40,334 nt of DNA, taken from positions 1 through 40,334 of the forward strand of contig CAZDTO010000001.1 of the NCBI GenBank assembly GCA_964508395.1, given 5' to 3'. Positions 7,453-40,205 of the stretch are shown here, in pieces (positions within the stretch are counted from its first letter, which is position 1; the number at the start of each line of letters is the position of its first letter). The position numbers and the translations under genes are program-made. Source of the DNA: an uncultured Gammaproteobacteria bacterium. Its GTDB lineage: Bacteria; Patescibacteriota; Microgenomatia; Levybacterales; UBA12049. Below the pieces are notes generated by a model, which was given only the letters and a program-made list of their open reading frames with translations, did not search any database and had not been told where the DNA came from.

Positions 7453-8042
7453 CTAACTCATCTCATAAAGACAATAGGAAACATTTTCATACACCGTGGG
7501 GAAGTCCACCTTATTTATGCAAAGATAGTTTATGTGCCAAAATGCAACTTAAGACCCCAGAAGTAAAGGAGAAACCAATTTCGGATCGCCCCGAAAATGG
7601 TTGTGAGTGCCATTGTCATAAACCAACTCATGCAAAAACGATGTATTGTAATTGTAAGTGCTCTTGCTCTACCCCTAGAGAGGAATCTACTAATTACCAG
7701 TCAAGTAGTAGTAAACTAGGAGCAAACGTGGAAGGGTGGGAAAAGGAGTTTGAGGAACTTCCTGAATGGGAAACATGGCGTGATACTCCACCAGAAAAAG
7801 AAGATTATCAATATGATTTAGGATTCTTACAAGCACAAATTAAAATCTTTATTTCTAATTTGCTCCGTTCAGAGAGAAAAAGGTTGGTGGAGGAAATTAA
7901 AAAAAAGGTAAAAGAAGAATTAGAATTAACTAGGGTTAAGAATCTCAAAGGCTTAAAGGTTATAGATCAATTGAATGATATATTTGATTTCGCTTTTGAT
8001 GATGTTTTGGAGTACTTGGAGGAGGTATTTAAGGGAGATTGA
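7449..8042 (+). CDS. hypothetical Cys/His-rich protein with acidic coiled-coil C-terminus
   Basis: Track ORF. CECHCHKPTHAKTMYCNCKCSCS cluster. Confidence 0.5.
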   Translation: MTNSSHKDNRKHFHTPWGSPPYLCKDSLCAKMQLKTPEVKEKPISDRPENGCECHCHKPTHAKTMYCNCKCSCSTPREESTNYQSSSSKLGANVEGWEKEFEELPEWETWRDTPPEKEDYQYDLGFLQAQIKIFISNLLRSERKRLVEEIKKKVKEELELTRVKNLKGLKVIDQLNDIFDFAFDDVLEYLEEVFKGD

Positions 8043-8146
8043 GTTGGGGAGAATGTTGACTATTGACTCTATTATCGTAGTTCAAGAGTGCTCTTGGGCT
8101 AAATTGAATAGAGGGTTCTTCTCTCCAACTGAGTCTCTTTAAGAAT

Positions 8147-8347
8147 ATGAAGAAGATAATGTATAAACATCATATAGAGTTTTTGAAAAGAATAAATAAA
8201 GAATTTACAACTGAAGATGCACAAAAAATACTAGGTAAATCCAGCATGGCATTGGGAGGTTTTTTAGGTGCATTAGTAAAAAATAAATATATAGAACCAA
8301 TTTATAGAATAACTCGTTCGAATGTTGTTTATAAAAAACTTGTATGA
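8147..8347 (+). CDS. small winged-helix-like DNA-binding protein (regulator candidate)
   Basis: Track ORF. FTTEDAQKILGKSSMALGGFLGALVKNKYIEP resembles a wHTH. It sits between two copies of TATTGAC...TTATCGTAGTT. Confidence 0.4.
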   Translation: MKKIMYKHHIEFLKRINKEFTTEDAQKILGKSSMALGGFLGALVKNKYIEPIYRITRSNVVYKKLV

Positions 8348-8437
8348 ATGTAGTCAATCTCTTGATTGAGAAGAAGGAGAAATGAACCTATTTTGGCGGG
8401 GATACTAGTGCCCGCCAGCAATACGTTCGGGAGAAAG

Positions 8438-8463
8438 AGGAGGCTATTAACAGCTTCCTTTTT
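8438..8463 (+). terminator. intrinsic terminator candidate after the wHTH gene
   Basis: aggaggc (8438-8444) pairs with gcttcct (8453-8459, one G-U), followed by a T5 run. Confidence 0.4.
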
Positions 8464-8468
8464 CGTTA

Positions 8469-8497
8469 TTGACAAGTAATTTCGGATGTGTTATCGT
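8469..8497 (+). promoter_or_regulatory. sigma70-type promoter with extended -10 (late operon promoter candidate)
   Basis: TTGACA 8469-8474, 17-nt spacer, TGt 8489-8491, TATCGT 8492-8497. Confidence 0.5.
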
Positions 8498-8506
8498 AGT
8501 TGCATA

Positions 8507-8545
8507 CCCGAACGTTTCATTAAATTGAAAGGTGCGGGTTTTTTT
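8507..8545 (+). terminator. terminator/attenuator hairpin immediately downstream of the promoter
   Basis: cccgaac (8507-8513) pairs with gtgcggg (8532-8538, one mismatch), then a T7 run 8539-8545 abutting ATG 8546. Confidence 0.45.
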
Positions 8546-8785
8546 ATGGTTCAGAAGAATAGTCACAAGGACAGCCTGACAATTTTCAGAAACAATATGA
8601 TGCTGGAAATTGCCATTACGGAAGTTAATCTGAGAATGGCGGAAAGAGATAAACTTCTCGCAGTTGATATAAACCCTAATCTTTCAGCACACATTGCGGG
8701 CTTAACAGAAAAAATAAAATTAATACAAAAGAATATTGCTATGGTTGATAAACTTTTAGAAGAGGAGGAGAAAAAATTAAACTGA
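8546..8785 (+). CDS. hypothetical coiled-coil protein, first gene of the late operon
   Basis: Track ORF 8486..8785. The upstream part overlaps the promoter and leader hairpin, so ATG 8546 (MVQKNSHK) is preferred. Confidence 0.45.
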   Translation: MVQKNSHKDSLTIFRNNMMLEIAITEVNLRMAERDKLLAVDINPNLSAHIAGLTEKIKLIQKNIAMVDKLLEEEEKKLN

Positions 8786-8786
8786 T

Positions 8787-9143
8787 ATGGCTTTAATTCC
8801 GTCTCCAGGATTCATGTTACTTGAAAAAGTTCCCGTTCCTCACACCAGTAAGCTGGCTCGTTCCAACGAGGATACCGCAGACTCCAACTACGGCAAGGTT
8901 TTAGATTGGGGTCTGCCTTTACTGCAAGAGGGCGGAGTTGTCCTACAGATACCCAGATTTTCCATAGAGACTAATGAGGAAGGGTTGGGAGGTAAGGAAA
9001 GAAAGCTCAAGAAGGGGGACATAGTAGTTTTCGAGAAGAGAACGGAACGTAAAATGAATGATGATTATAGCTCGGGGGCAGATATAATTCAGGTTCGATT
9101 TGATTCACTGCTCGCTTTATTTATAGAGGAGGTAAGAGAATAA
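8787..9143 (+). CDS. groES: GroES-like co-chaperonin (Cpn10 family, divergent)
   Basis: LIPSPGFMLLEKV (cf. GroES i-P-l-g-d-r-v-l-v), NYGKVLDWG (cf. G-x-V-v-A-v-G), LKKGDIVVFEK (cf. v-k-v-G-D-x-V-l-f) and a terminal IIQVRFDSLLALF. Lies immediately upstream of the GroEL-like gene and overlaps it by 1 nt. Confidence 0.6.
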   Translation: MALIPSPGFMLLEKVPVPHTSKLARSNEDTADSNYGKVLDWGLPLLQEGGVVLQIPRFSIETNEEGLGGKERKLKKGDIVVFEKRTERKMNDDYSSGADIIQVRFDSLLALFIEEVRE

Positions 9144-10792
9144 TGGCAATAATTCCAAAAAGGGTAGAGTTTTCTACGGAGGCTCGAAACTATATCTTAA
9201 AAGGAGCTGGAATTATGGCTCGTGCAGTTGGAACTACCTTGGGGCCTAAAGGCAGGAATGTCTTACTATCCTCAAAATATGGTGGGATTATTGAGGTGCA
9301 TGACGGGGTGACTGTAAGTAACGAAACCAAGCTGGACGATCCTCGTGAAGACGCAGGAGCTACAGCTATACGAGACGCAGCCCGAAAGACTAATGATGCC
9401 TCCGGGGATGGCACTACCACCGCCACAGTTTTAGCTTACGAGATTTTACGGGAGGGGAACGCTTACATAATTGCAGGTAAGAACCCCATGTTGATGCAGA
9501 AAGGTATTGATACTGCGGCTAAGCAGGCGGTCGAACTCCTAAAAGAAATGGCAGAACCTATTAAAGAATCTTTAGAGAAGATGATCCAGGTGGCTACAGT
9601 CTCGGCAGCTGATGAGGAGATAGGAAAAGTTATAGCTGAGGCTCTTAAAAAAGTAGGCAAATACGGAGTGGTGACGGTAGACAAGGGTAACGAATTGGGC
9701 TATCATACCGAGTTTAAGGACGGTATGGAGTGGGATAAAGGCTGGATACATCCTGGTTTTGTTTTAAGGGTGCTTGACGGTAAGCCTAACGTGAGGTTAG
9801 AAGCTAAGGTTGAGGAACCCTTTGTTTTGGTGACCGATCACACGATCACTTCGCGATTAGAGATACTACCCTTTTTGGAGAGGTTTGTGGAGGCGGGACA
9901 CAAAAACTTGCTTATTATCTGTGACGGAGTAGAGAGAGAAGCAATGGTTATTTTAGGAGCGCAGTTTGAACGGGGAGTAATTAATGTCTTGCCTGTTCCC
10001 GCCCCCTCATTTGGTGAGCATAAAAGAGATGGTCTGGAAGACATTGCTATTTTAACGGGCGGAGTGTTTGTCTCTAAAGAGATGGGAATGAACATCAAGG
10101 ACATTAAGCTAGACGTTGAGCCGCAGATATTAGGTAGGGCTGATTCGGTTGTTGCCACCCAAACTTCAACAGTCCTTATAGGAGGCAGGGGTGATCCGGA
10201 GAAAGTCAAGGCCAGGGCAAAACAAATCGAAGAACAATTAAAGGATGCGGATCATGAGTTGAAGAAAGAGAAGTACATCGAAAGGCTTGCCAAGCTGACT
10301 TCGGGAGTAGCGGTAGTTAAGGTCGGGACATCTGGGGATGCGGAAAACAGAGAAAAGACCGAGAGGGTTAAGGATGCCATAGGTGCTACCAAGGCTGCGG
10401 TGGAGGAAGGGATTGTACCTGGAGGCGGAATAGCCTTGCTAGAAATAGCTCAAAAGATAAACACCAATTTGGGTTCTGAGGAGGAAAATCTAGGGGCAGA
10501 AATTTTAAAGAAAGCTCTATTAAAACCAATTAAACTATTAGTAGAAAATGCCGGGGGCAGTCCTGATGTAGTTATTAACGAGATTCTTAAAAAGGAAGCG
10601 GGAACAGGCTATAATGTGGTTACAGGAAAGTATGTTGACATGAAGAAGGCGGGAATTGTGGATCCACTCAAAGTTACTATCTCCGCAGTACAAAATGCGG
10701 CAAGTGTGGGGGGGATGTTATTGACTGTAGAGGCAACCATAACTGATATGCCTGATCCCGAAAGAGAGAAAAAAGAACAGCAAGGAGAATAA
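9143..10792 (+). CDS. groEL: GroEL-like chaperonin (Cpn60 family)
   Basis: 549 aa. Hallmark blocks TLGPKGRNVLL, DGVTV, GDGTTTATVLA, AVVKVG, EEGIVPGGG, GIVDPLKV. Lacks the C-terminal GGM repeat tail. Confidence 0.9.
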   Translation: MAIIPKRVEFSTEARNYILKGAGIMARAVGTTLGPKGRNVLLSSKYGGIIEVHDGVTVSNETKLDDPREDAGATAIRDAARKTNDASGDGTTTATVLAYEILREGNAYIIAGKNPMLMQKGIDTAAKQAVELLKEMAEPIKESLEKMIQVATVSAADEEIGKVIAEALKKVGKYGVVTVDKGNELGYHTEFKDGMEWDKGWIHPGFVLRVLDGKPNVRLEAKVEEPFVLVTDHTITSRLEILPFLERFVEAGHKNLLIICDGVEREAMVILGAQFERGVINVLPVPAPSFGEHKRDGLEDIAILTGGVFVSKEMGMNIKDIKLDVEPQILGRADSVVATQTSTVLIGGRGDPEKVKARAKQIEEQLKDADHELKKEKYIERLAKLTSGVAVVKVGTSGDAENREKTERVKDAIGATKAAVEEGIVPGGGIALLEIAQKINTNLGSEEENLGAEILKKALLKPIKLLVENAGGSPDVVINEILKKEAGTGYNVVTGKYVDMKKAGIVDPLKVTISAVQNAASVGGMLLTVEATITDMPDPEREKKEQQGE

Positions 10793-12005: not shown

Positions 12006-12442
12006 CTGAACAAAAAACCGATATTAAACAACTTCAAGTAATCTTTGGGGAGGATTTAGACTTATTGTTATTTTATCTTGCTTGGATTAAAAATGGACTT
12101 AATGCCACTAGAGCTTATAAAGAATTGCACCCAAACGTAACAAATGGAAGTGCGGAGGTTTTGGGTTCAAGGGCGTTAGGAAAAGTTAGTAAAGAGTTAA
12201 TTATGCAAGCCTATGGGTTGGATCAACAAATATACTTCGACCAATTAAAAGAAGGAATTGATGCTACTAAGTGGAATGATTTTACAGGCGAGAGGGAAGC
12301 AGACCATAAGACAAGACGGGAATACCACAAGACGCTTGGAAAATTATTAGGAATAGAAAGAGATGATGAAACCCCACCAATTCAAGTGAATGTAGGAGTA
12401 TTTAACAATGCAACTATGGCAAAAAGATATTCAATAAAATGA
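12002..12442 (+). CDS. terS: terminase small subunit
   Basis: LFYLAWIKNGLNATRAYKELHPNVTNGSAEVLGSRALGK matches the Terminase_2-type HTH pattern (N-A-T-x-A-y...a...as.ll). Lies directly upstream of TerL. Confidence 0.7.
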   Translation: MTEQKTDIKQLQVIFGEDLDLLLFYLAWIKNGLNATRAYKELHPNVTNGSAEVLGSRALGKVSKELIMQAYGLDQQIYFDQLKEGIDATKWNDFTGEREADHKTRREYHKTLGKLLGIERDDETPPIQVNVGVFNNATMAKRYSIK

Positions 12443-13359
12443 GAGCTTTTGGAGAAAACATCAATTATCAATCGTTTATCGAGGATAACTTCCTTATCAA
12501 AAACAAGGATGGAATAGTTGTACCATTCCTTTTTGACATCTTCCAGGAGGGACAGATCAGATCAGTACAGGACTACTACATGGTTGACCTATACCGACAC
12601 TATGGCGATGAGCTTGAGGGCGTGAGGGATATTGTCCTCAAGGGACGCAAAGAGGGGTTTAGCGCAATGATACTGGGTATGTTTGCTACCGACTTCTTAA
12701 TGTCGGAACACCCGATCGGCTGCGTATCTATTGCGGATACAAAAGAGGAAACTCAGAGACTATTGAGCAGGGCTAAGTTTTTTATAGAGTCGGCAGCAAT
12801 AAAAGAAAATAGTAAGCTAACGGACATTTGCGATATAGTCAGTAAAAACCAGTTGCGCAATAAGTGGAACGGGGCGGAGTTTTGGATTGGTACAGCAGGG
12901 AGTAAGGTTGCATTGCGTACCGAAACAGTTCAGGACTTGCATTTTTCAGAAGCAGCCTACTTTGCCGATACGGATATCATAACTGCCACAGAGACGATTG
13001 AAGGGGCGTTGCAGATGGTTCCGCAAGGCAAGGGGAAGGTGTTTATCGAGTCAACTGCTAACGGATATGGCAACTATTATCAGGACTTGTGGGATAAGGC
13101 CAGTTTAGGCGAGAGTACCTTTAGACCAGTATTCTATGGAGCTGACCAGTTCTACTCAAAAGAATGGCTGGCTATCAAAGAGATAGACTTTACGACCAGA
13201 GAGATGTTCTGGCAGGAATATCCTAATAGCCCGGGGCAGGCTTTTATTTCCAGCGGCAGTAAGTTTTTTGATACAGAAGCCATACTGTGGTTGCAAAAAG
13301 AGGTTGTTAGAAAGCCTCTGATTGAGGGCAATCTGAACATATACGGAGAGATAGTTTAA
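12439..13359 (+). CDS. terL: terminase large subunit, N-terminal ATPase half only
   Basis: VLKGRKEGFS (Walker A-like), VQDLHFSEAAYF (Walker B/catalytic Glu region), IESTANG (coupling motif), FWQEYPNSPGQAF. Stops at TAA 13357-13359 with no nuclease domain. Confidence 0.8.
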   Translation: MRAFGENINYQSFIEDNFLIKNKDGIVVPFLFDIFQEGQIRSVQDYYMVDLYRHYGDELEGVRDIVLKGRKEGFSAMILGMFATDFLMSEHPIGCVSIADTKEETQRLLSRAKFFIESAAIKENSKLTDICDIVSKNQLRNKWNGAEFWIGTAGSKVALRTETVQDLHFSEAAYFADTDIITATETIEGALQMVPQGKGKVFIESTANGYGNYYQDLWDKASLGESTFRPVFYGADQFYSKEWLAIKEIDFTTREMFWQEYPNSPGQAFISSGSKFFDTEAILWLQKEVVRKPLIEGNLNIYGEIV

Positions 13360-13643: not shown

Positions 13644-13891
13644 AAAGATGGTTTGATGATTGGAAGATAGAAACAGAAAATGAACGAAAAAACTATGTTC
13701 GCTTAATACTGCGGTTACCTCATACAAAGTCAAAGCAGAAATTTTTGATGTTAACAGTTAAAAGGAATGGTGGATTACATTGGTTATTTAGCCACTTTGA
13801 ATTAGCTTTAATGAATTTATCAGAGTCTGTAGAAATAACTTTACCAGAAGACACAAAGGTTGTCAAAACAATATATAAAGAATTAAAATGA
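13640..13891 (+). CDS. hypothetical protein
   Basis: Track ORF, ATGA overlaps at both ends. Confidence 0.45.
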   Translation: MKRWFDDWKIETENERKNYVRLILRLPHTKSKQKFLMLTVKRNGGLHWLFSHFELALMNLSESVEITLPEDTKVVKTIYKELK

Positions 13892-14670
13892 ATCCTGCCG
13901 AAGTAATCAGTGAAGTTCTACAATCAATAGCTGAGAAAGCTCAAGTAGGCGTTAATTTATTGGAACTTGAAAAGAGAGCAGAGACTACTATACAAATAAG
14001 AGGAGCCGTTTCGGCAAACAAAAACTATCAACCTCAATGGGCGAAGACACCCTTCCCTTCTGTGGTGTGTCTGGGAGTCAACGATCAAGTAGGACACAAC
14101 ATACCCAGGGATTATGTCTTACAAGATGGTGATCTCTTAAAGATAGACTGCGGTATCACAATCAATGGTCAGGCAGGAGACGCAGGACTCACCATTCCTA
14201 TAGGCAAGATTAGCGATAGGGATGAGAGACTGCTAAGGTATACCAAGAGAGCTTTGTACCGAGGTATCCAAGCTATTCAAGTAGGCGGCAAGGTTAGCGA
14301 GGTAGGCAAAGTTATTGAACGCTATATAATGCAGATGGGATTGGCTGTTGTCAGACAGATGAACGGTCATGGTATAGGAGCGCAGATGCACATGGAGCCG
14401 GCCATCCCGCACTTTATCGTACCGCAAAAGAGAGTCGGGAAGAAGTACGAGTATACCGAGGTTGACTTGGGTACTTTCCGCGAGGGACAGATAGTATGCA
14501 TTGAACCTCATGTTACCTATCATAGCGATGTGGTCAAGGAGGACGATTGGGGTTTGAAAACTAGAGATGGGCGCAAGTCAGCAATGTTTGAACATATGGT
14601 AGAGATTAGTTCATCGGGAGTAAGAATTTTAACAACGCATATTGCAGAGGAGGTGAATTATGGAGAATAA
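13888..14670 (+). CDS. map: methionine aminopeptidase, type I-like
   Basis: Pita-bread fold motifs with all expected metal ligands visible: VGHNIP, KIDCG (Asp), GDAGLT (Asp), GHGIG (His), CIEP (Glu), FEHMV (Glu). Confidence 0.8.
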   Translation: MNPAEVISEVLQSIAEKAQVGVNLLELEKRAETTIQIRGAVSANKNYQPQWAKTPFPSVVCLGVNDQVGHNIPRDYVLQDGDLLKIDCGITINGQAGDAGLTIPIGKISDRDERLLRYTKRALYRGIQAIQVGGKVSEVGKVIERYIMQMGLAVVRQMNGHGIGAQMHMEPAIPHFIVPQKRVGKKYEYTEVDLGTFREGQIVCIEPHVTYHSDVVKEDDWGLKTRDGRKSAMFEHMVEISSSGVRILTTHIAEEVNYGE

Positions 14671-14920
14671 AAATATATTTGTCGCCGGTATCCCCTGGGC
14701 TTTTGATGACCTAAAGTTAAGTGAACTCTTTGCGAAACACGGAGCGGTAGTCTCGGCTAAAGTTATAACTGACAGAGATACGGGGAGATCAAAAGGCTAT
14801 GGTTTTGTTGAGATGTCAACATCAGAGGAAGCCCAAAGCGCAATCAAAAACCTTGACGGTACTGATCTTAATGGGCGAAAATTGGTAGTCAATGCCGCAA
14901 AACCAAGAAGGGAGGTATAA
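14660..14920 (+). CDS. RRM-type RNA-binding protein
   Basis: 86 aa. RNP2-like IFVAGI and a perfect RNP1 KGYGFVEM (14792-14815). Overall it resembles small bacterial RRM (Rbp) proteins. Confidence 0.8.
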   Translation: MENKNIFVAGIPWAFDDLKLSELFAKHGAVVSAKVITDRDTGRSKGYGFVEMSTSEEAQSAIKNLDGTDLNGRKLVVNAAKPRREV

Positions 14921-17859: not shown

Positions 17860-17980
17860 AAAACTTGAAGCCAAATTACTCAATGCGGCTAAGAGAAAAG
17901 GTTTTAGTAAGGAGAGGATTGGTGCGTATGTTTATGGAAGTCTCCATAAACTGGGTTGGAAACCCAACAAGGAAAAATGA
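17852..17980 (+). CDS. hypothetical small basic protein (42 aa)
   Basis: Hand-translated MPKKLEAKLLNAAKRKGFSKERIGAYVYGSLHKLGWKPNKEK. Overlaps the portal stop. Confidence 0.35.
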   Translation: MPKKLEAKLLNAAKRKGFSKERIGAYVYGSLHKLGWKPNKEK

Positions 17981-18189
17981 AAACCAAAGTAGATAGGGTA
18001 ATTATTCTTAAAAGAATAAGAGATGAAGGCAGGGTATCTTGGAAAATTATTGGTAGAATTTTCAAAATCAGTTATACCAGAGCAAGACAAATTTATTTTA
18101 ATAATGGACAAAATAACAATTATCCTAAAACGACTGGCTTAAAGGTACAGCCTCGAAAAATAGCAGACTATACAAACCTCTATTCTTAG
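17977..18189 (+). CDS. small HTH protein
   Basis: Track ORF 17956..18189, with the ATG at 17977 in an ATGA overlap. VSWKIIGRIFKISYTRARQIY is HTH-like. Confidence 0.45.
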   Translation: MKTKVDRVIILKRIRDEGRVSWKIIGRIFKISYTRARQIYFNNGQNNNYPKTTGLKVQPRKIADYTNLYS

Positions 18190-18216
18190 TCAATAATATA
18201 ACCAGCAGAAAAAGGT

Positions 18217-18256
18217 GAGCAATCTGATAAGCAGTTATCAGGTCGCTCTTTTTTAT
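18217..18256 (+). terminator. intrinsic terminator
   Basis: gagc..ctgataa-gcag-ttatcag..gctc stem (perfect 7-bp core), followed by tttttt. Confidence 0.7.
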
Positions 18257-18319
18257 TTTAATAGATAGTCTCGGAGAACGCTACTCCGCAACAAATATGC
18301 GTAAAAAGACTATGACATT

Positions 18320-19117: not shown

Positions 19118-19185
19118 AGAATTACTAAAAGTTTATATCAAAAATATAAATTTCTAGTAGCACTTTAACAACTGAATAGATATAG

Positions 19186-19214
19186 TTGACAGAGGAGTTT
19201 TGTAGTGTTATACT
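19186..19214 (+). promoter_or_regulatory. sigma70-type promoter with extended -10 driving the HNH gene
   Basis: TTGACA 19186-19191, 17-nt spacer, TGt 19206-19208, TATACT 19209-19214. ATG 19221 lies about 7 nt downstream, so the transcript may be leaderless. Confidence 0.5.
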
Positions 19215-19220
19215 TTGGAT

Positions 19221-19778
19221 ATGCCAAGGTATAAATTTCCCAAAGGACATATTGCTTGGAATAAGGGAAAAACTGCTAAAAACGATCCTCGAATCTCAAA
19301 ACTTGCAGTATGGCAAGGTAAAAAGTTTTCTCTTGAGCATCGCAGAAGGATTGCCGAAGGAAATAAGGGCAAGAAAATGTCTGAGGAAGCCAAAGAGAAA
19401 ATAAGACAGTCCCATTTAGGCGAGAAAAACGCAGTGTATGGGAAGAAACAGACGCCAGAGCATATTGAAAAGCGGACGGCAAAGATTCGGGGTCGTAAGA
19501 ATACTTGGTTGCAAGGTAAGAAACACAAACGATGGCAAGGCGGAGTCAGAAGAGATAGAGGCTATAGATATATTCTCAAACCTAACCATCCAAATGCAAT
19601 CCAGGGATATGTAGCAGAACATAGACTTGTAATAGAGGAACAATCAGGAGAATTATTAGATCGAAAATTGGTTGTCCATCATATAGATGGGAGCAGAGAT
19701 AATAATAACCTAGAAAACTTACAAGTCCTAAATAGAAAAGAACATAGCAGACTACATAGACTACAAAAACTTCATTAA
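19221..19778 (+). CDS. HNH homing endonuclease with NUMOD3-like repeats
   Basis: Track ORF 19215..19778 (TTG 19215, ATG 19221). Repeated s-x-E-h-r-x-k-I motifs (LEHRRRIAEGNKG, SEEAKEKIRQSHLG, TPEHIEKRTAKIRG). C-terminal HNH block VVHHIDGSRDNNNLENLQVLNRKEHSRLH. Confidence 0.8.
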   Translation: MPRYKFPKGHIAWNKGKTAKNDPRISKLAVWQGKKFSLEHRRRIAEGNKGKKMSEEAKEKIRQSHLGEKNAVYGKKQTPEHIEKRTAKIRGRKNTWLQGKKHKRWQGGVRRDRGYRYILKPNHPNAIQGYVAEHRLVIEEQSGELLDRKLVVHHIDGSRDNNNLENLQVLNRKEHSRLHRLQKLH

Positions 19779-19831
19779 ATAACATTCGGTCATCTATACC
19801 TATTCAGTTGAAGAAGTAGCTCAAAAAAATT

Positions 19832-20878
19832 ATGGCTACCTTCGATGAGTACCTAAATTCTCTTACTTTGCACAGGATGGCACCTAACGTTTACGATGGC
19901 GTTTTGGGTGGAAACTTCTTAACGAACAGGCTTTTTATGAACGCTAAGCCTTGGGGCGGAGAAACAATTAAAGTAGCTTTCATGTACCGCAAAAATACTT
20001 CCGGCCAATGGTATGACGGAATGGACTCGCTTTCAACCGCAAGAGTCAATACACGTATAAGACTTTCTTTTGAGCCAAGATGGTTCTCTCAATCAGTAGT
20101 GGTTGCAGGAACTGATCTTGATGTCAACAATACCAAAGAGGGAGTTATTAAACTTTTAGGCGTTGAGATGGAGACAGCCAAGATTTCTATGGCTGACAGC
20201 GTTGGAGACGCATTTTATACCCTTCAAGCAGGCAAAGCCCCATTATCTCTATTAGATGTGGCTGATGACGCAACAGATGTAACAACGTATGGCGGAGCCA
20301 GCAGAAGCACATACAGCGCTCTTAACGGACAAAGAAACGCAGCGGGCGGAGTATTGTCTACCTCTATGATGGGAACTCTGTATGATGACTGTTCGGCAGG
20401 AACAATCCATCCTAACCTCCTCACAGCAGGAGAGGCAGTCTGGAGAGCTTATGAAGGACTTTTACAGCCGACTATAGTAAATAACATTCAAGCATCTGGT
20501 TACTCTCAAGCAACCGCAGACGGAGTTGTAGCTTCTAAACAAGCATTAGGCGGAGACATCGGATTTGATTCACTCTTTTACACAGGACATCCTGTTGTAA
20601 GAGATGAGAAAGTTCCAGCTCAAAACTTATTTATGATCCCTGAAGACTATGTAGCTTGGTACTCGCTTCCTTCCATGAAATGGACACAAGTATCAATGGG
20701 TACTTCGGTAATTGACGGACCTTACAAGAAAGCTCCTAACAGTGCTTTGAAACTTTACTGGTCAGGGTTGAGAGAACCTACATCATCCGATTCGGAAGTA
20801 GGATTTTTCAAGATCGGCGGACAGTTAATTGGTACGAACCCAAGGTTTGTAGGAAGGCTGACCGGAATAACAGGATAA
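19832..20878 (+). CDS. major capsid protein candidate
   Basis: 348 aa ORF following the scaffold gene. Size and position fit, but no motif-level proof. Confidence 0.55.
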   Translation: MATFDEYLNSLTLHRMAPNVYDGVLGGNFLTNRLFMNAKPWGGETIKVAFMYRKNTSGQWYDGMDSLSTARVNTRIRLSFEPRWFSQSVVVAGTDLDVNNTKEGVIKLLGVEMETAKISMADSVGDAFYTLQAGKAPLSLLDVADDATDVTTYGGASRSTYSALNGQRNAAGGVLSTSMMGTLYDDCSAGTIHPNLLTAGEAVWRAYEGLLQPTIVNNIQASGYSQATADGVVASKQALGGDIGFDSLFYTGHPVVRDEKVPAQNLFMIPEDYVAWYSLPSMKWTQVSMGTSVIDGPYKKAPNSALKLYWSGLREPTSSDSEVGFFKIGGQLIGTNPRFVGRLTGITG

Positions 20879-21615: not shown

Positions 21616-23007
21616 ATGCGAAGCTTAGCAGAACGAAATACCCTATTAAAATATAGGAAAGGACAGCTTAAACTCGAAGACCTCGAAGGCGGTGGCGGAC
21701 ACGTCGCCCCAGCTCCGGGAGGCAGAATCTTCTACGTAGACTCAGTTTCAGGCGCCTCAACCAATGGCGGAGAAGACACAGATCATCCAATGGCAACTAT
21801 TGACCAGGCTGTCAGTCTGGCAGCAGTAACAGCAACTAGAGGCGATGTGATTGCAGTTTTACCAGGACATGCAGAAAACATCTCGGCAGCAACCTCTTTG
21901 GTATCCGACATAGCAGGACTTAGGATTGTAGGCTTTGGTGTAGGCAGGGCAAGACCAGTTCTGACTTGGACAGCTACGGCAGGAACTATCGAGATGGATG
22001 CGGCCAACTGTACTCTTGAGAATTTGGTGTTTTTAGCGTCAGTTTCAGCAATTACGGTAGGAATAAATGTTGATGCAGCTAATTGTCAGATGGTCGGCTG
22101 CGAGTTTAACTGGGATGAAACAGGAGATGACTTTCTAATTGGAGTTGATCCCGCAACAAGCGGAACGAGGTTTAAATTTATCGAAAATGATTTTATCGCA
22201 GAAGACACTGCGGGCGCAGCTGATGGACTTAGATTAAATGACACAGACGGGTATGAAATTATCGGAAATTTCTTTACAGGAAATTGGTCAAATGCTCCTA
22301 TAAGAAGTGTTACTGGTGTTTCTTCGGGGGTTAATATTAGTGATAATTATGTAGTTAATACTTCAACCACCGCTGGAGATGGATGTATTCTGATTGCAAC
22401 AGCAGATACGGGAATTTGTGCCAACAACTGGATGGGTTCTGGTGTAGTTGGTACTGGTGCAGACAATACACTATTTGATCCGGGCTCTCTTTACTGTACT
22501 GGCAATCGTCTTGCAAGAGGTATTGATAAAGCAGGTTATATCGTTCCCACAGGCAGTCTTACAGGAGGTAGGCTATTAGAGTGGAGACTAGCTAAGGTTG
22601 CAGACTCGTCCTTTACAGGTGGCTCAGCTAACACTCATGGAGATGATGGCGGAACAGACGATCCCCACACAGTCTTTACTGTTACAGGAGATATAGTTAT
22701 ACAGGCAATTTGGGGCGTATGTAATACCGATCTTACAGGAGCTACAGCTACTATTGAAGTAGGAGTTGCAGGAAATACCGCAGGACTTATTGCTCAAGAA
22801 ACTGCCACAGAAATTGACGATGGTGGAATATATGTTAGTGCTACCCAGGCAGTAGGAGTGGCTGCAGCTGCCGGATCGGGTGCGTTGATTGCTCTAAATG
22901 ATGGTGTAGATATTATTGAAACTGTCGGAACAGCAGATGTTACAGCTGGTCAGATTGATTATTACTGTGTTTGGGCGCCAGCTGAGGATGGAGCATACTT
23001 AGCATGA
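21616..23007 (+). CDS. right-handed beta-helix (pectate-lyase-fold-like) structural protein
   Basis: GGRIFYVDSVSGASTNGGEDTDHPMATIDQAV...GDVIAVLPGHAENI, then a repetitive N/G/D-rich coil pattern (NDF, GNFFTGN, SDNYVVN). Confidence 0.45.
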   Translation: MRSLAERNTLLKYRKGQLKLEDLEGGGGHVAPAPGGRIFYVDSVSGASTNGGEDTDHPMATIDQAVSLAAVTATRGDVIAVLPGHAENISAATSLVSDIAGLRIVGFGVGRARPVLTWTATAGTIEMDAANCTLENLVFLASVSAITVGINVDAANCQMVGCEFNWDETGDDFLIGVDPATSGTRFKFIENDFIAEDTAGAADGLRLNDTDGYEIIGNFFTGNWSNAPIRSVTGVSSGVNISDNYVVNTSTTAGDGCILIATADTGICANNWMGSGVVGTGADNTLFDPGSLYCTGNRLARGIDKAGYIVPTGSLTGGRLLEWRLAKVADSSFTGGSANTHGDDGGTDDPHTVFTVTGDIVIQAIWGVCNTDLTGATATIEVGVAGNTAGLIAQETATEIDDGGIYVSATQAVGVAAAAGSGALIALNDGVDIIETVGTADVTAGQIDYYCVWAPAEDGAYLA

Positions 23008-23011
23008 TACT

Positions 23012-23290
23012 ATGGCTAAAAAGAAAGTAAAAAAAGTTAAAGAAGTCGTAGAGACTCCTCAAGAGGAGGCAGTAGAAGAAGTGGTTGTTGAGGAAGCATC
23101 TGTTGAAGAGGGCGTTGAAGAAGTTAAAAAAGAAGAACAACCAGTCGTTGCAAGTGCGCCCTGTCCTGATTGCACTGTCTTAATAGATGATGGGGGCAAG
23201 AGCGAATTTGGAGGCAAAGGCGGAGTTAAGCCAGGTTTGATAAATCCGAATACTCATTGTCCTAATTGTGAAGGTCATGGAGTAGTATAG
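23012..23290 (+). CDS. acidic protein with C-terminal zinc-finger (CxxC...CxxCxGxG)
   Basis: Track ORF. CPDC ... CPNCEGHG. Confidence 0.45.
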   Translation: MAKKKVKKVKEVVETPQEEAVEEVVVEEASVEEGVEEVKKEEQPVVASAPCPDCTVLIDDGGKSEFGGKGGVKPGLINPNTHCPNCEGHGVV

Positions 23291-23398: not shown

Positions 23399-24052
23399 AT
23401 GGATAACAGCAGATATTCATTCTACAATTTTACGGAAACTCCTTTTGAAGGACGCTTTGGCGGACAACCTTATGTCTTTGCCCCTGGAGAAACAAAAGAA
23501 TTTGACCCTGATAAACATCACATGCTCCATATCTTGGCTAAACAGTTGGCAGACCGTGAACTGGCCAAAGGTGTAAAGGGAATTTTAAGAACTAAAGAAG
23601 CGGGCAATGACTACGGCAAGGCCATAGATGCTAACGGAAACCTCTACAAACCTACCATTGAAGACCGCAAGGCTCTTATGCGAAAAAGTATAGGCGAGCT
23701 TGCTGATAAAGCAATTCCTTATCCAGTCCAGGAAGAACCTGAGGCAGGAGCAACTAAGGAGACGACAGAGGACATAGCAGAGTTGAAGGAGACGGTAAAG
23801 AGCCTAATGGAGATGGTACAGGGTCTGACAAATCAGTTGGGGGCAGTAAAACAACCCACTGTGCCCGTTAATTCGCCTATAGGGAATGGGCAACCACCTG
23901 TGGAAGCTGTAGAACCTTCCAGCACAGGAGTTACGAGGGATGTACTTTCAGAGATGTTAAAAGAAAAAGGTATTACTCCGCCTGAAAATGCAAGCAAAGA
24001 ACAACTCATACGATTATTCGAGAATAGGGGTTCAGTACAAACAGCAGTTTAA
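23399..24052 (+). CDS. hypothetical protein with C-terminal HeH/SAP-like motif
   Basis: Track ORF. LSEMLKEKGITPPENASKEQLIRLFE resembles an HeH (Rho-N/SAP-like) motif. Confidence 0.45.
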   Translation: MDNSRYSFYNFTETPFEGRFGGQPYVFAPGETKEFDPDKHHMLHILAKQLADRELAKGVKGILRTKEAGNDYGKAIDANGNLYKPTIEDRKALMRKSIGELADKAIPYPVQEEPEAGATKETTEDIAELKETVKSLMEMVQGLTNQLGAVKQPTVPVNSPIGNGQPPVEAVEPSSTGVTRDVLSEMLKEKGITPPENASKEQLIRLFENRGSVQTAV

Positions 24053-24466
24053 TTCGTAATCTGATCTGAGAGGAAACTCTCTACGAGTATGGCGGCCGCC
24101 GTCTCACCTTTCAGATCAGGCTAGGAATGGCTTGAGATGGAGCAAGACACCTACAGGCACTCTTTTCCTCGTAAGAGGTTCGGCGAATAAAAAGAGATAA
24201 CAGTAGGACGTACACTAACTCATTCAGACGCATCTATTAGAAACGCTTGACTCTCTCAAGAACAAACAAGGGAGTAGGAGGACTAAGGATGAATGCGGAG
24301 AATAGATTAGGAACGGAAGGTGAGATCAACTACTCGTACCCTAGTACCCCGAGAGGGGGAAATAAGGGAAGGATTAAACACGCAATTTGACAATCTAAAA
24401 TCGTTTGACATTCACGCAAGAGTCAAAGTCTTCTCTATCGGGTAGAAGATGGAGACTCTTTTTTTG
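24053..24466 (+). ncRNA. candidate large structured RNA (family not recognised), ending in an intrinsic terminator
   Basis: No ORF of 60 aa or more on either strand. Three GNRA-capped hairpins on the + strand only (gagag-GAAA-ctctc 24068-24081, cctc-GTAA-gagg 24167-24178, cccc-GAGA-gggg 24347-24358). Nested long-range helices tacgagta/tactcgta and tctcacc/ggtgaga. See findings. Confidence 0.45.
24418..24466 (+). terminator. intrinsic terminator
   Basis: aagagtc (24418-24424) pairs with gactctt (24454-24460). Inner stem tcttct (24429-24434) pairs with agaaga (24444-24449). T-run to 24466. Confidence 0.65.
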
Positions 24467-24487
24467 GTAAAGAGGCACATTGAAAAA

Positions 24488-24730
24488 TTAAAGACCGTTT
24501 CGATGAAGACAGAAATTATATTTATCTTTTGCACGTTTGGTAAACCAGTCAATGTCAACTTGGCGTATTAAACCATCCTTGTCTGTGTCTTTACGGTTGA
24601 ATGACCTCTCAAAGTAATCGTCAGCCTCTGTTTGACACGAGGCTTTTATTTGAGAAGGTCTTAATTGAAACCAATAAATGAGTAGAAAAATGATTAGTGT
24701 AATCGAAGCAATAATTATTTTTTTGTTCAT
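24488..24730 (-). CDS. small membrane-anchored protein (antisense moron)
   Basis: Track ORF. N-terminal helix IIIASITLIIFLLIYWF, with two Cys in the soluble part. Confidence 0.5.
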   Translation of the reverse strand: MNKKIIIASITLIIFLLIYWFQLRPSQIKASCQTEADDYFERSFNRKDTDKDGLIRQVDIDWFTKRAKDKYNFCLHRNGL

Positions 24731-24975
24731 TTAATTAAGTGTTTTTTGAAAAAAGTCAAGGGTTTATCGAGAGGAAAAAATTTGATAGTGATTACTAAAG
24801 AAATGGTATAGGAAATAAAAACAGCATAAGGATAAGTATTGGAAGGAAAAAAATCATCGTGATTTTTTAAACGAAGAAACTCAAGTAGATAAGCGACAAA
24901 AATAGTTCCAACATAAAATATGGGAATTGAAAAAATAACTGATAAGAAAAAATAATGACGAATTTTTCTGAACAT
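24727..24975 (-). CDS. small integral membrane protein, about 2-3 TM helices (antisense moron)
   Basis: Track ORF. FFLSVIFSIPIFYVGTIFVAYLL and YAVFISYTISLVITIKFF. ATGA-type overlap with the downstream minus-strand ORF. Confidence 0.5.
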   Translation of the reverse strand: MFRKIRHYFFLSVIFSIPIFYVGTIFVAYLLEFLRLKNHDDFFPSNTYPYAVFISYTISLVITIKFFPLDKPLTFFKKHLIK

Positions 24976-40169: not shown

Positions 40170-40205
40170 AAGGGGTTTTTCTTGAAAAAGGAAAGCCCCT
40201 TTTTC
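40170..40205 (+). terminator. terminator-like hairpin
   Basis: aagggg (40170-40175) pairs with cccctt (40196-40201), with an inner tttttc/gaaaaa stem, then a T-run. Confidence 0.35.

Follow-up and report, generated by a model that had tools for sequence, protein, structure and literature searches.

A lineage-specific, GNRA-rich structured segment, possibly an acquired RNA module, between a phage late gene and its terminator

The stretch of 40,334 nucleotides (nt) of contig CAZDTO010000001.1 analysed here (the window) is a phage genome. Among its late genes is one on the + strand (23399-24052) that encodes a 217-amino-acid (aa) protein with a conserved N-terminal domain and a HeH/Rho_N-like C-terminus (a weak HeH match). 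The stop codon of this gene lies at 24050-52, and an intrinsic terminator, which is kept in related phages, ends the transcription unit at 24418-24466 (+ strand). Between the two is a segment whose structured core (24066-24360, + strand; ~295 nt) is an insertion specific to this phage lineage. It is followed by a conserved box, TTTGACAAT…TTTGACAT (24396-24417, + strand), which in three loci from related phages (L011, L012 and L018) stands directly after the stop codon. An earlier reading of the region 24053-24466, hereafter the original prediction, had described it as a candidate ~410-nt structured RNA of a kind resembling large phage-associated RNAs, and had correctly placed the terminator. 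The structured unit proved to be shorter than that, only ~271-295 nt (24068-24338, or to 24358), and independent of its context; the 3' 70 nt of the region consist of the box and the terminator, which are common to relatives and lie outside the insert. We suggest that the insert may be an acquired, self-contained structured-RNA module in a late-gene 3' untranslated region (3' UTR), a reading that we regard as quite possible, though short of probable.

The evidence for an insertion comes from related phages. Relatives were found by way of the 217-aa protein, which has 26 homologues, or of the GroEL protein cluster, the latter leading to the closest one. We took 15 syntenic loci representing seven distinct related phages; the identity of the 217-aa protein to these relatives runs from 73% down to 44%, and the closest relative has 75-85% DNA identity over shared genes (~82% in shared regions overall). 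The structured segment is absent from all seven (loci L004-L012 and L018-L020), and neither nhmmer nor blastn searches with the element matched the fetched relatives. What corresponds in the relatives to window positions 24396-24466 is the box and the terminator: a TTTGACAAT-type box or a TTGACAT motif lies within a few bases of the stop codon in four of the seven phages, and a terminator lies within ~30-50 nt of the stop or box in six, with L007 having a promoter-like site there instead. Because the seven relatives lack the segment, parsimony makes it an insertion in this lineage. The same sequence is found, identical, in contigs from four different sequencing runs (SRA), and since these are independent assemblies the segment is not an assembly artefact.

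The box is itself kept across phages whose 217-aa proteins are only 60-73% identical. In the form TTTGACAAT…(C)TTGACAT it lies between the stop of the 217-aa homologue and the terminator at 24396-24417 in the window, 1250-1285 in L011, 824-850 in L012 and 6660-6690 in L018. In L007, the TTGACAT motif seems to supply the -35 element of the gene that follows.

On either side of the insert lies one copy of an imperfect direct repeat (30-44 nt), for which an anchored alignment of left against right copy gave p ~0.007 relative to shuffles and random genome segments. In the left copy (24022-24065, + strand) the gene end (…NRGSVQTAV*) is intact and the TTTGACAAT box after it has decayed (TTCGTAATCT), while in the right copy (24361-24402, + strand) a decayed gene-end relic (…NKGRIKHAI*) precedes an intact TTTGACAAT box. 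In comparison with L018, the left copy is orthologous to its gene end and the right copy aligns across both gene end and box, and relative to this closest relative the two copies are thus decayed in complementary ways. The last ten codons of a 33-codon open reading frame (ORF) that runs out of the insert, NKGRIKHAI-stop, align in frame with the end of the 217-aa protein, NRGSVQTAV-stop; on these alignments the right copy is shown to be a decayed relic of the original gene end. The junctions and the relic alignment therefore delimit a foreign core at ~24066-24360. Two other origins were rejected. Comparison with L010 had suggested that the insertion duplicated a 5-bp target, TCGTA, and that it might be a group I intron in the 3' UTR, but L011, L012 and L018 place the right junction at the TTTGACAAT box. 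A tandem duplication of the 3' part of the gene is at odds with the window self-search, in which the 340 nt upstream showed no resemblance to the insert.

The composition of the insert is unlike that of the other intergenic DNA of this phage: the G+C content of the core is 0.48, as against 0.30-0.42 in the other intergenic gaps of the window, and the value for the whole gap (24053-24487), 0.44, is the highest among them. Stop codons occur in all six frames of the insert, with no ORF in the module, and the ORF list bears out the earlier observation that the region has no ORF of 60 aa or more. Self-search of the window found no second copy, so that the element is single-copy in 40 kb.

The predicted fold, all on the + strand, is nested and multi-branched. 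At its 5' edge, hairpin A (GAGAG-GAAA-CUCUC, 24068-24081; pair probability (p) 1.00) is followed by the closing helix H2 (UACGAGUA/UACUCGUA, 24082-89 with 24331-38), whose 8 Watson-Crick pairs have p 0.96 in all contexts. Hairpin B (GGC-GGCC-GCC, GGCGGCCGCC, 24091-24100; p 0.98) lies within the structured module and is a perfect self-complementary 10-mer palindrome with a NotI site, which could form either a GGCC-loop hairpin or an intermolecular duplex. Helix H3 (GUCUCACCUUU/GAAGGUGAGAU, 24101-11 with 24316-26; 11 bp made of 9 Watson-Crick and 2 G-U pairs; p 0.88-0.89) closes a junction with three arms, and H2 and H3 are predicted to form two stacked long-range helices. The first of the arms is hairpin C (UCAGGCUA-GGAA-UGGCUUGA, in DNA TCAGGCTA-GGAA-TGGCTTGA; 24116-24135; two G-U pairs in the stem; p 0.99), a fourth GNRA loop that had been overlooked. 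Arm D (24150-24207) consists of CCUAC/GUAGG, CUCUUUU/AAAAGAG and CCUC-GUAA-GAGG (p 1.00, 0.96 and 0.70), with an 11-nt internal loop, UUCGGCGAAUA. The long arm E (24209-24315) is an irregular stem (helix p 0.92-0.98) with a 12-nt apical loop, CAAGAACAAACA, and its 3' strand holds AGGAGG (24276-81) and an AUG at 24289. Hairpin F (CCCC-GAGA-GGGG, 24347-24358; p 0.56-0.68) stands at the 3' edge of the insert. The probabilities of the core helices (0.88-1.0) are unchanged when the sequence is folded within 0.4, 0.6 or 1 kb of context; that of the outermost helix, H1 (24062-67 with 24371-76, in the repeat), is near 0 in the larger context. The boundaries of this context-independent fold (core 24066-24360) match the insertion boundaries, which were defined independently. 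An 11-nt GAAA tetraloop receptor was considered and rejected: UAUGG (24088-92) and ACUAAG (24282-87) are present but are never opposed in any predicted helix.

Most of the structural elements listed in the original prediction are among these. The hairpins gagag-GAAA-ctctc (24068-81), cctc-GTAA-gagg (24167-78, within ctctttt/aaaagag) and cccc-GAGA-gggg (24347-58) are all present, and the long-range pairings tacgagta/tactcgta (24082-89 with 24331-38) and tctcacc/ggtgaga (24102-08 with 24319-25) belong to H2 and H3, with p 0.88-0.96. The 9-bp 'competing' helix ctgatctga/tcagatcag and the cttga hairpin exist as sequences, but both have p near 0 in the ensemble; tttgac/gtcaaa is likewise present but is part of the conserved box and terminator region, not of the insert. 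The hairpins and helices listed for 24053-24466 are real features and not products of chance.

Statistical comparison singles out two properties of the fold. Counting hairpins with a Watson-Crick stem of 4 bp or more, the + strand of 24066-24360 (295 nt) carries three GNRA hairpins, or four if G-U pairs are allowed, compared with means of 0.066 and 0.225, respectively, in 20,000 dinucleotide shuffles of the same segment (P ~5e-5). Eight Watson-Crick GNRA hairpins occur on the + strand of the 40,334-nt window in total, three of them in this region; the - strand of the region has none, as had been claimed. For 24066-24360, the + strand has a minimum free energy (MFE) of -95.5 kcal/mol (z = -4.13, a value equalled by 0 of 200 shuffles) and the - strand one of -76.6 kcal/mol (z = -0.83), an asymmetry of 19 kcal/mol with 5 G-U pairs. 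Together with the stable helices, these values uphold the view of the region as non-coding and as having a strand-specific, non-random, RNA-type structure. When we compared z-scores across the genome, using a regression scan and a sampled shuffle scan, random windows had a mean z of -0.29 (SD 1.25). Stability alone is not distinctive, because z of about -4 occurs in other intergenic regions; the distinctive signals are the GNRA enrichment and the nested long-range architecture.

Two AT-rich gaps of the window also have strong predicted structure, 8043-8485 (+ strand) and 17860-18319 (- strand), with z of -4.3 and -4.0, and sub-windows reaching z ~-6.5. They are made of long local hairpins, for example a near-perfect ~85-nt stem at 8043-8129, and neither gap has an Rfam match. 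Near the window end, a GAAA-capped hairpin with 14 bp in its stem (AAGGGGTTTTTCTT-GAAA-AAGGAAAGCCCCTT, 40170-40201) is probably a terminator.

No known RNA family accounts for the insert, in agreement with the original prediction. Rfam 15 gave no match at gathering score in the whole window, and ARAGORN found no tRNA or tmRNA genes in the 40 kb. With E-values up to 10 and permissive filters, searches of 23900-24650 and of 24060-24365 returned sub-threshold noise only, the best being the L20-Deltaproteobacteria leader at 21 bits against a gathering score of 42.8. The short RNase P-like words (GAGGAAA, GGAGCAAG and GAUGAAUG) are chance-level matches and come with no covariance-model match; a tmRNA or tRNA-like element was rejected on the empty ARAGORN and Rfam results, and ROOL, GOLLD, OLE, raiA, HEARO and the other families of Rfam 15 on the lack of any covariance-model match. 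For a group II intron the only resemblance is a 14-nt match of the GAAA hairpin to the D5 model, at 13.5 bits against a gathering score of 61.

Searches for homologues of the sequence itself were similarly empty. Using blastn, we found no similarity to GenBank phages or PLSDB plasmids, and exact scans of IMG/VR with a 49-mer and a 22-mer gave no match. In further scans, the frames of the element were treated as proteins, with stops as X, and searched with five or six wobble-tolerant 24-nt anchors and tblastn confirmation. Seven such pseudo-protein scans, of IMG/VR (three frames), JGI metagenomes (two) and GTDB genomes (two), gave no match at a sensitivity that covers copies of at least ~90% identity and part of the 80-90% range, and not more distant or purely structural homologues. 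Five other contigs carry the element; all are 100% identical and come from one sample series, giving zero covariation signal.

How might such a module work? In the scheme that we favour, this lineage alone would have acquired a ~295-nt module (24066-24360), placed after the stop codon of a late gene and ahead of the terminator of that gene, and the insertion would have duplicated ~30-44 nt of target. A scan for sigma-70-type sites found no promoter-like site on the + strand from 23429 to 24664. With no promoter predicted upstream and the conserved terminator downstream, the module would be transcribed with the late structural operon as its 3' UTR. The insert lies between the stop of the 217-aa gene and the terminator of that gene, with no promoter of its own predicted, which is the position of a 3'-UTR-derived non-coding RNA (ncRNA). 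The module would act, if at all, at the RNA level: a compact, nuclease-resistant domain could persist as a stable ~300-400-nt RNA ending at the terminator. Its GNRA loops might make tertiary or intermolecular contacts, with the palindromic GGCGGCCGCC hairpin as a candidate site of self-association. Just as well, the module may be a passenger, selfish or neutral, that stems from a structured RNA of some other genome. A bolder version would make the insert the first member of an undescribed class of GNRA-rich structured RNAs of ~270-300 nt that moves between phages with target duplication and yields a stable, possibly self-associating ncRNA from the late-gene 3' UTRs of groundwater phages, possibly phages of CPR (candidate phyla radiation) bacteria; this we consider unlikely.

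Of the other explanations, one places the function, if any, in the DNA. The segment would then be a non-autonomous mobile element or a recombination scar, such as a miniature inverted-repeat transposable element (MITE) or filler DNA from break repair, in which the arms of H2 and H3 matter as DNA and the RNA fold has no function. A lineage-specific insertion with a flanking direct repeat that resembles a target-site duplication is what one would look for in such an element; moreover, TACGAGTA and TCTCACCTT are found in each of the two arms, in inverted orientation, and the genome carries a second mobile insertion that relatives lack, an HNH homing endonuclease (19118-19827). On the other side, the inverted segments of H2 and H3 are short and subterminal, 16-45 nt from the ends, and only a 5-6-nt TAATC match lies at the outer edges. 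As a target-site duplication, the imperfect 30-44-nt repeat (p ~0.007) is more diverged than is typical and longer than those that transposons usually make. MITEs are normally multi-copy, yet none of the window, the relatives or the phage, plasmid, IMG/VR, JGI and GTDB collections holds a second copy. Nor would DNA-level repeats be expected to give four GNRA-capped hairpins (P ~5e-5) or a strand asymmetry of 19 kcal/mol with 5 G-U pairs, and we judge this explanation improbable. It is very unlikely that the structure is a chance feature of a meaningless spacer. The similar MFE z-scores of other intergenic regions and the lack of evidence for conservation would suit that explanation, but it has to contend with the GNRA enrichment relative to composition-matched shuffles (P ~5e-5), with helices that are nested, adjacent and long-range, and with fold boundaries that coincide with the boundaries of the insertion.

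The remaining two explanations assign the segment to known kinds of gene or RNA. The 33-codon ORF (24289-24390, + strand; stop at 24388-90), which would encode the peptide MNAENRLGTEGEINYSYPSTPRGGNKGRIKHAI, could make the segment an imported small gene (a moron) with a ~220-nt structured 5' leader that controls translation. Its AGGAGG (24276-81), reported correctly in the original prediction along with the ATG and stop, lies 7 nt upstream of the ATG at 24289, a consensus Shine-Dalgarno at ideal spacing with a chance of roughly 1e-2, and the start codon lies within arm E, a placement also seen in translational switches. Yet the ORF starts in the insert and takes its last 10 codons and stop from the gene-end relic, and because its end comes from there it is a chimera created by the insertion. 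An open stretch of 33 codons after an ATG is expected ~20% of the time, and gene callers did not call this one in three contigs, L001-L003. Most genes of this phage, and nearly all its late genes, have A-rich upstream sequences without a Shine-Dalgarno. In addition, the AUG with its downstream bases and codons 10-17 sit in high-probability helices, the latter codons being used by H2 and H3, so that fold and translation would be mutually exclusive. The peptide has no candidate homologue in a set of 5.8 billion proteins and no match at E up to 1e-3 among 1.84 billion representatives; a 47-aa ORF has no homologue in the same sets, and a conserved small protein gene was rejected as no homologues with a conserved frame were found there. 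The ORF, which the original prediction had raised as a possible coding gene, is thus probably an insertion by-product and not a gene, and a moron is quite unlikely. The least likely explanation of all is a diverged self-splicing intron (group I or II) or another known ribozyme or RNA class (RNase P, tmRNA, HEARO/omega RNA or a riboswitch). Its size and GNRA richness are like those of small group I introns, a homing endonuclease occurs elsewhere in the phage, and a P1-like pairing of the 5' flank with 24082-87 is possible; however, no Rfam family, RF00028 included, scores even at E up to 10 with the core alone, and ARAGORN is empty. The candidate P1 pairings lack a U·G wobble at the 5' splice site, there is no domain V, and the ends of the module pair with each other through H2 and H3, unlike group I topology. 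Furthermore, intron homing does not produce a flanking direct repeat. An intron inside the coding sequence (CDS) was rejected as well: the 217-aa protein is complete unspliced and its C-terminus is full-length in alignment with 14 homologues, and therefore nothing needs to be spliced out.

Several observations weigh against an acquired RNA module of this kind. The collections searched hold no homologue of the element, and hence there is no signal of covariation or purifying selection. Its absence from close relatives makes the element dispensable for this type of phage; the original prediction had held that a lack of conservation in homologues would speak against it, and within the phage lineage the seven relatives are without the element. 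Folding z-scores near -4 are found in other intergenic regions of the genome too, as stacks of local hairpins. The AGGAGG-N7-ATG arrangement within arm E is not accounted for by a model in which only RNA matters, and the proposed function, a stable and self-associating 3'-UTR RNA, is pure conjecture held with low confidence. Taken together, a novel structured RNA is plausible but unproven, and a large conserved phage RNA is not supported, because the relatives lack the element, which does not belong to the conserved backbone of these phages.

Should the module prove to be a functional RNA, it would represent a new class of phage-borne structured RNA. Its source would be a poorly known group of groundwater phages, with a TM7 phage among their nearest relatives in GenBank. 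A structured RNA would then be seen to behave as a discrete unit that can be inserted, and otherwise collinear genomes with and without the insert would offer an unusually clean natural experiment. For the present, the element is a single sequence without relatives in the collections searched, and the locus mainly illustrates how an insertion can give rise to a micro-ORF that looks convincing but is spurious.

The rest of the genome provides context for the insert. The major head protein gene lies at 19832-20878, and a comparison of this protein with GenBank phages puts two nearest, an uncultured phage from spring water and a TM7 phage (31-33% identity); the window also encodes an SU10-type adaptor and an amidase. 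The homing endonuclease, with HNH_3 and NUMOD3 domains (19118-19827; ORF 19215-19778), has a 265-aa gene on one side and the gene for the major head protein on the other. In L015 and L018, the closest relatives, 2 nt separate these two genes, which makes the endonuclease gene an insertion by comparison, and a similar ~28-nt stretch occurs at both of its junctions (19111-36 and 19805-32). Within the otherwise collinear head module, 21616-23290 is a variable cassette: where the window has genes of 463 and 92 aa, the closest relative (L018 4574-5708) has genes of 52 and 324 aa instead, with no collinear blastn match at the DNA level. Downstream of the terminator, an antisense cassette (24488-24975, - strand; G+C 0.26-0.29) holds two small ORFs of 80 and 82 aa, the 80-aa product having a hydrophobic, signal-like N-terminal segment. 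The same place in relatives is occupied by an antisense small ORF (L019, 2353-2517) or an AT-rich gap (L004 and L008). A further gap, of 319 nt, follows a distant homologue of the 217-aa gene in L021 (MW202566.1, 10049-10367). It was considered as a site of an analogous RNA and rejected, as it appears to hold an unannotated ORF of ~72 aa instead, with the start ATGAGTGAAAGC.

Elsewhere, the window carries genes for a GroEL-type chaperonin (549 aa, 9143-10792), an M24 metallopeptidase resembling methionine aminopeptidase (13888-14670) and an 86-aa protein (14660-14920). The L015 homologue of the 86-aa protein carries an RRM_1 RNA-recognition motif, and because this protein is also present in a relative without the insert, it is not specific to the insert. 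The L015 homologue (7916-9622) of the 306-aa protein of the window (12439-13359) is 568 aa long and has a weak Intein_splicing match, which suggests an intein that is absent from the window homologue.

Set against known systems, the insert has partial counterparts in several. Phage group I introns, which often come with homing endonucleases, are likewise sporadic, structured, GNRA-containing insertions of a few hundred nt in phage late regions, and a homing endonuclease is present elsewhere in this genome. In contrast to them, the insert interrupts no CDS, has no match to RF00028, differs in topology and has a duplication at its flanks. With MITEs and other small non-autonomous insertion elements, and with integrative elements that restore the 3' end of the gene they enter, the insert shares a direct repeat and the combination of one intact gene end with one displaced relic. 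Unlike these, the insert is single-copy, has no clear inverted repeats at its very ends, encodes no recombinase or transposase, and has strand-specific features of an RNA type.

ROOL (~580 nt) and GOLLD (~800 nt) are often adjacent to tRNA genes. The insert resembles them in being non-coding and GNRA-rich, with a multi-branched predicted fold in a phage genome. These large ornate RNAs are often prophage-associated and form homo-oligomers (PMC12286853), and the palindromic hairpin of the insert might, speculatively, offer a site of self-association. The kinship with ROOL and GOLLD that the original prediction had entertained is not supported: at ~270-295 nt the insert is half to a third of their size, it matches neither covariance model, no tRNA genes lie in the window, and it is a singleton, whereas the ROOL and GOLLD families are defined by covariation. 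Bacterial small RNAs derived from 3' UTRs are processed from the 3' end of an mRNA and share the terminator of its gene. The insert is much larger and more structured than is typical of these, and a self-search of the window for complementarity of at least 11 nt to + strand transcripts found none within the core. Like them, it stands after a stop codon and ahead of the terminator that serves the same gene, with no promoter of its own predicted. By analogy, if it works as an RNA, the insert would work most like ROOL and GOLLD or like these 3'-UTR-derived small RNAs.

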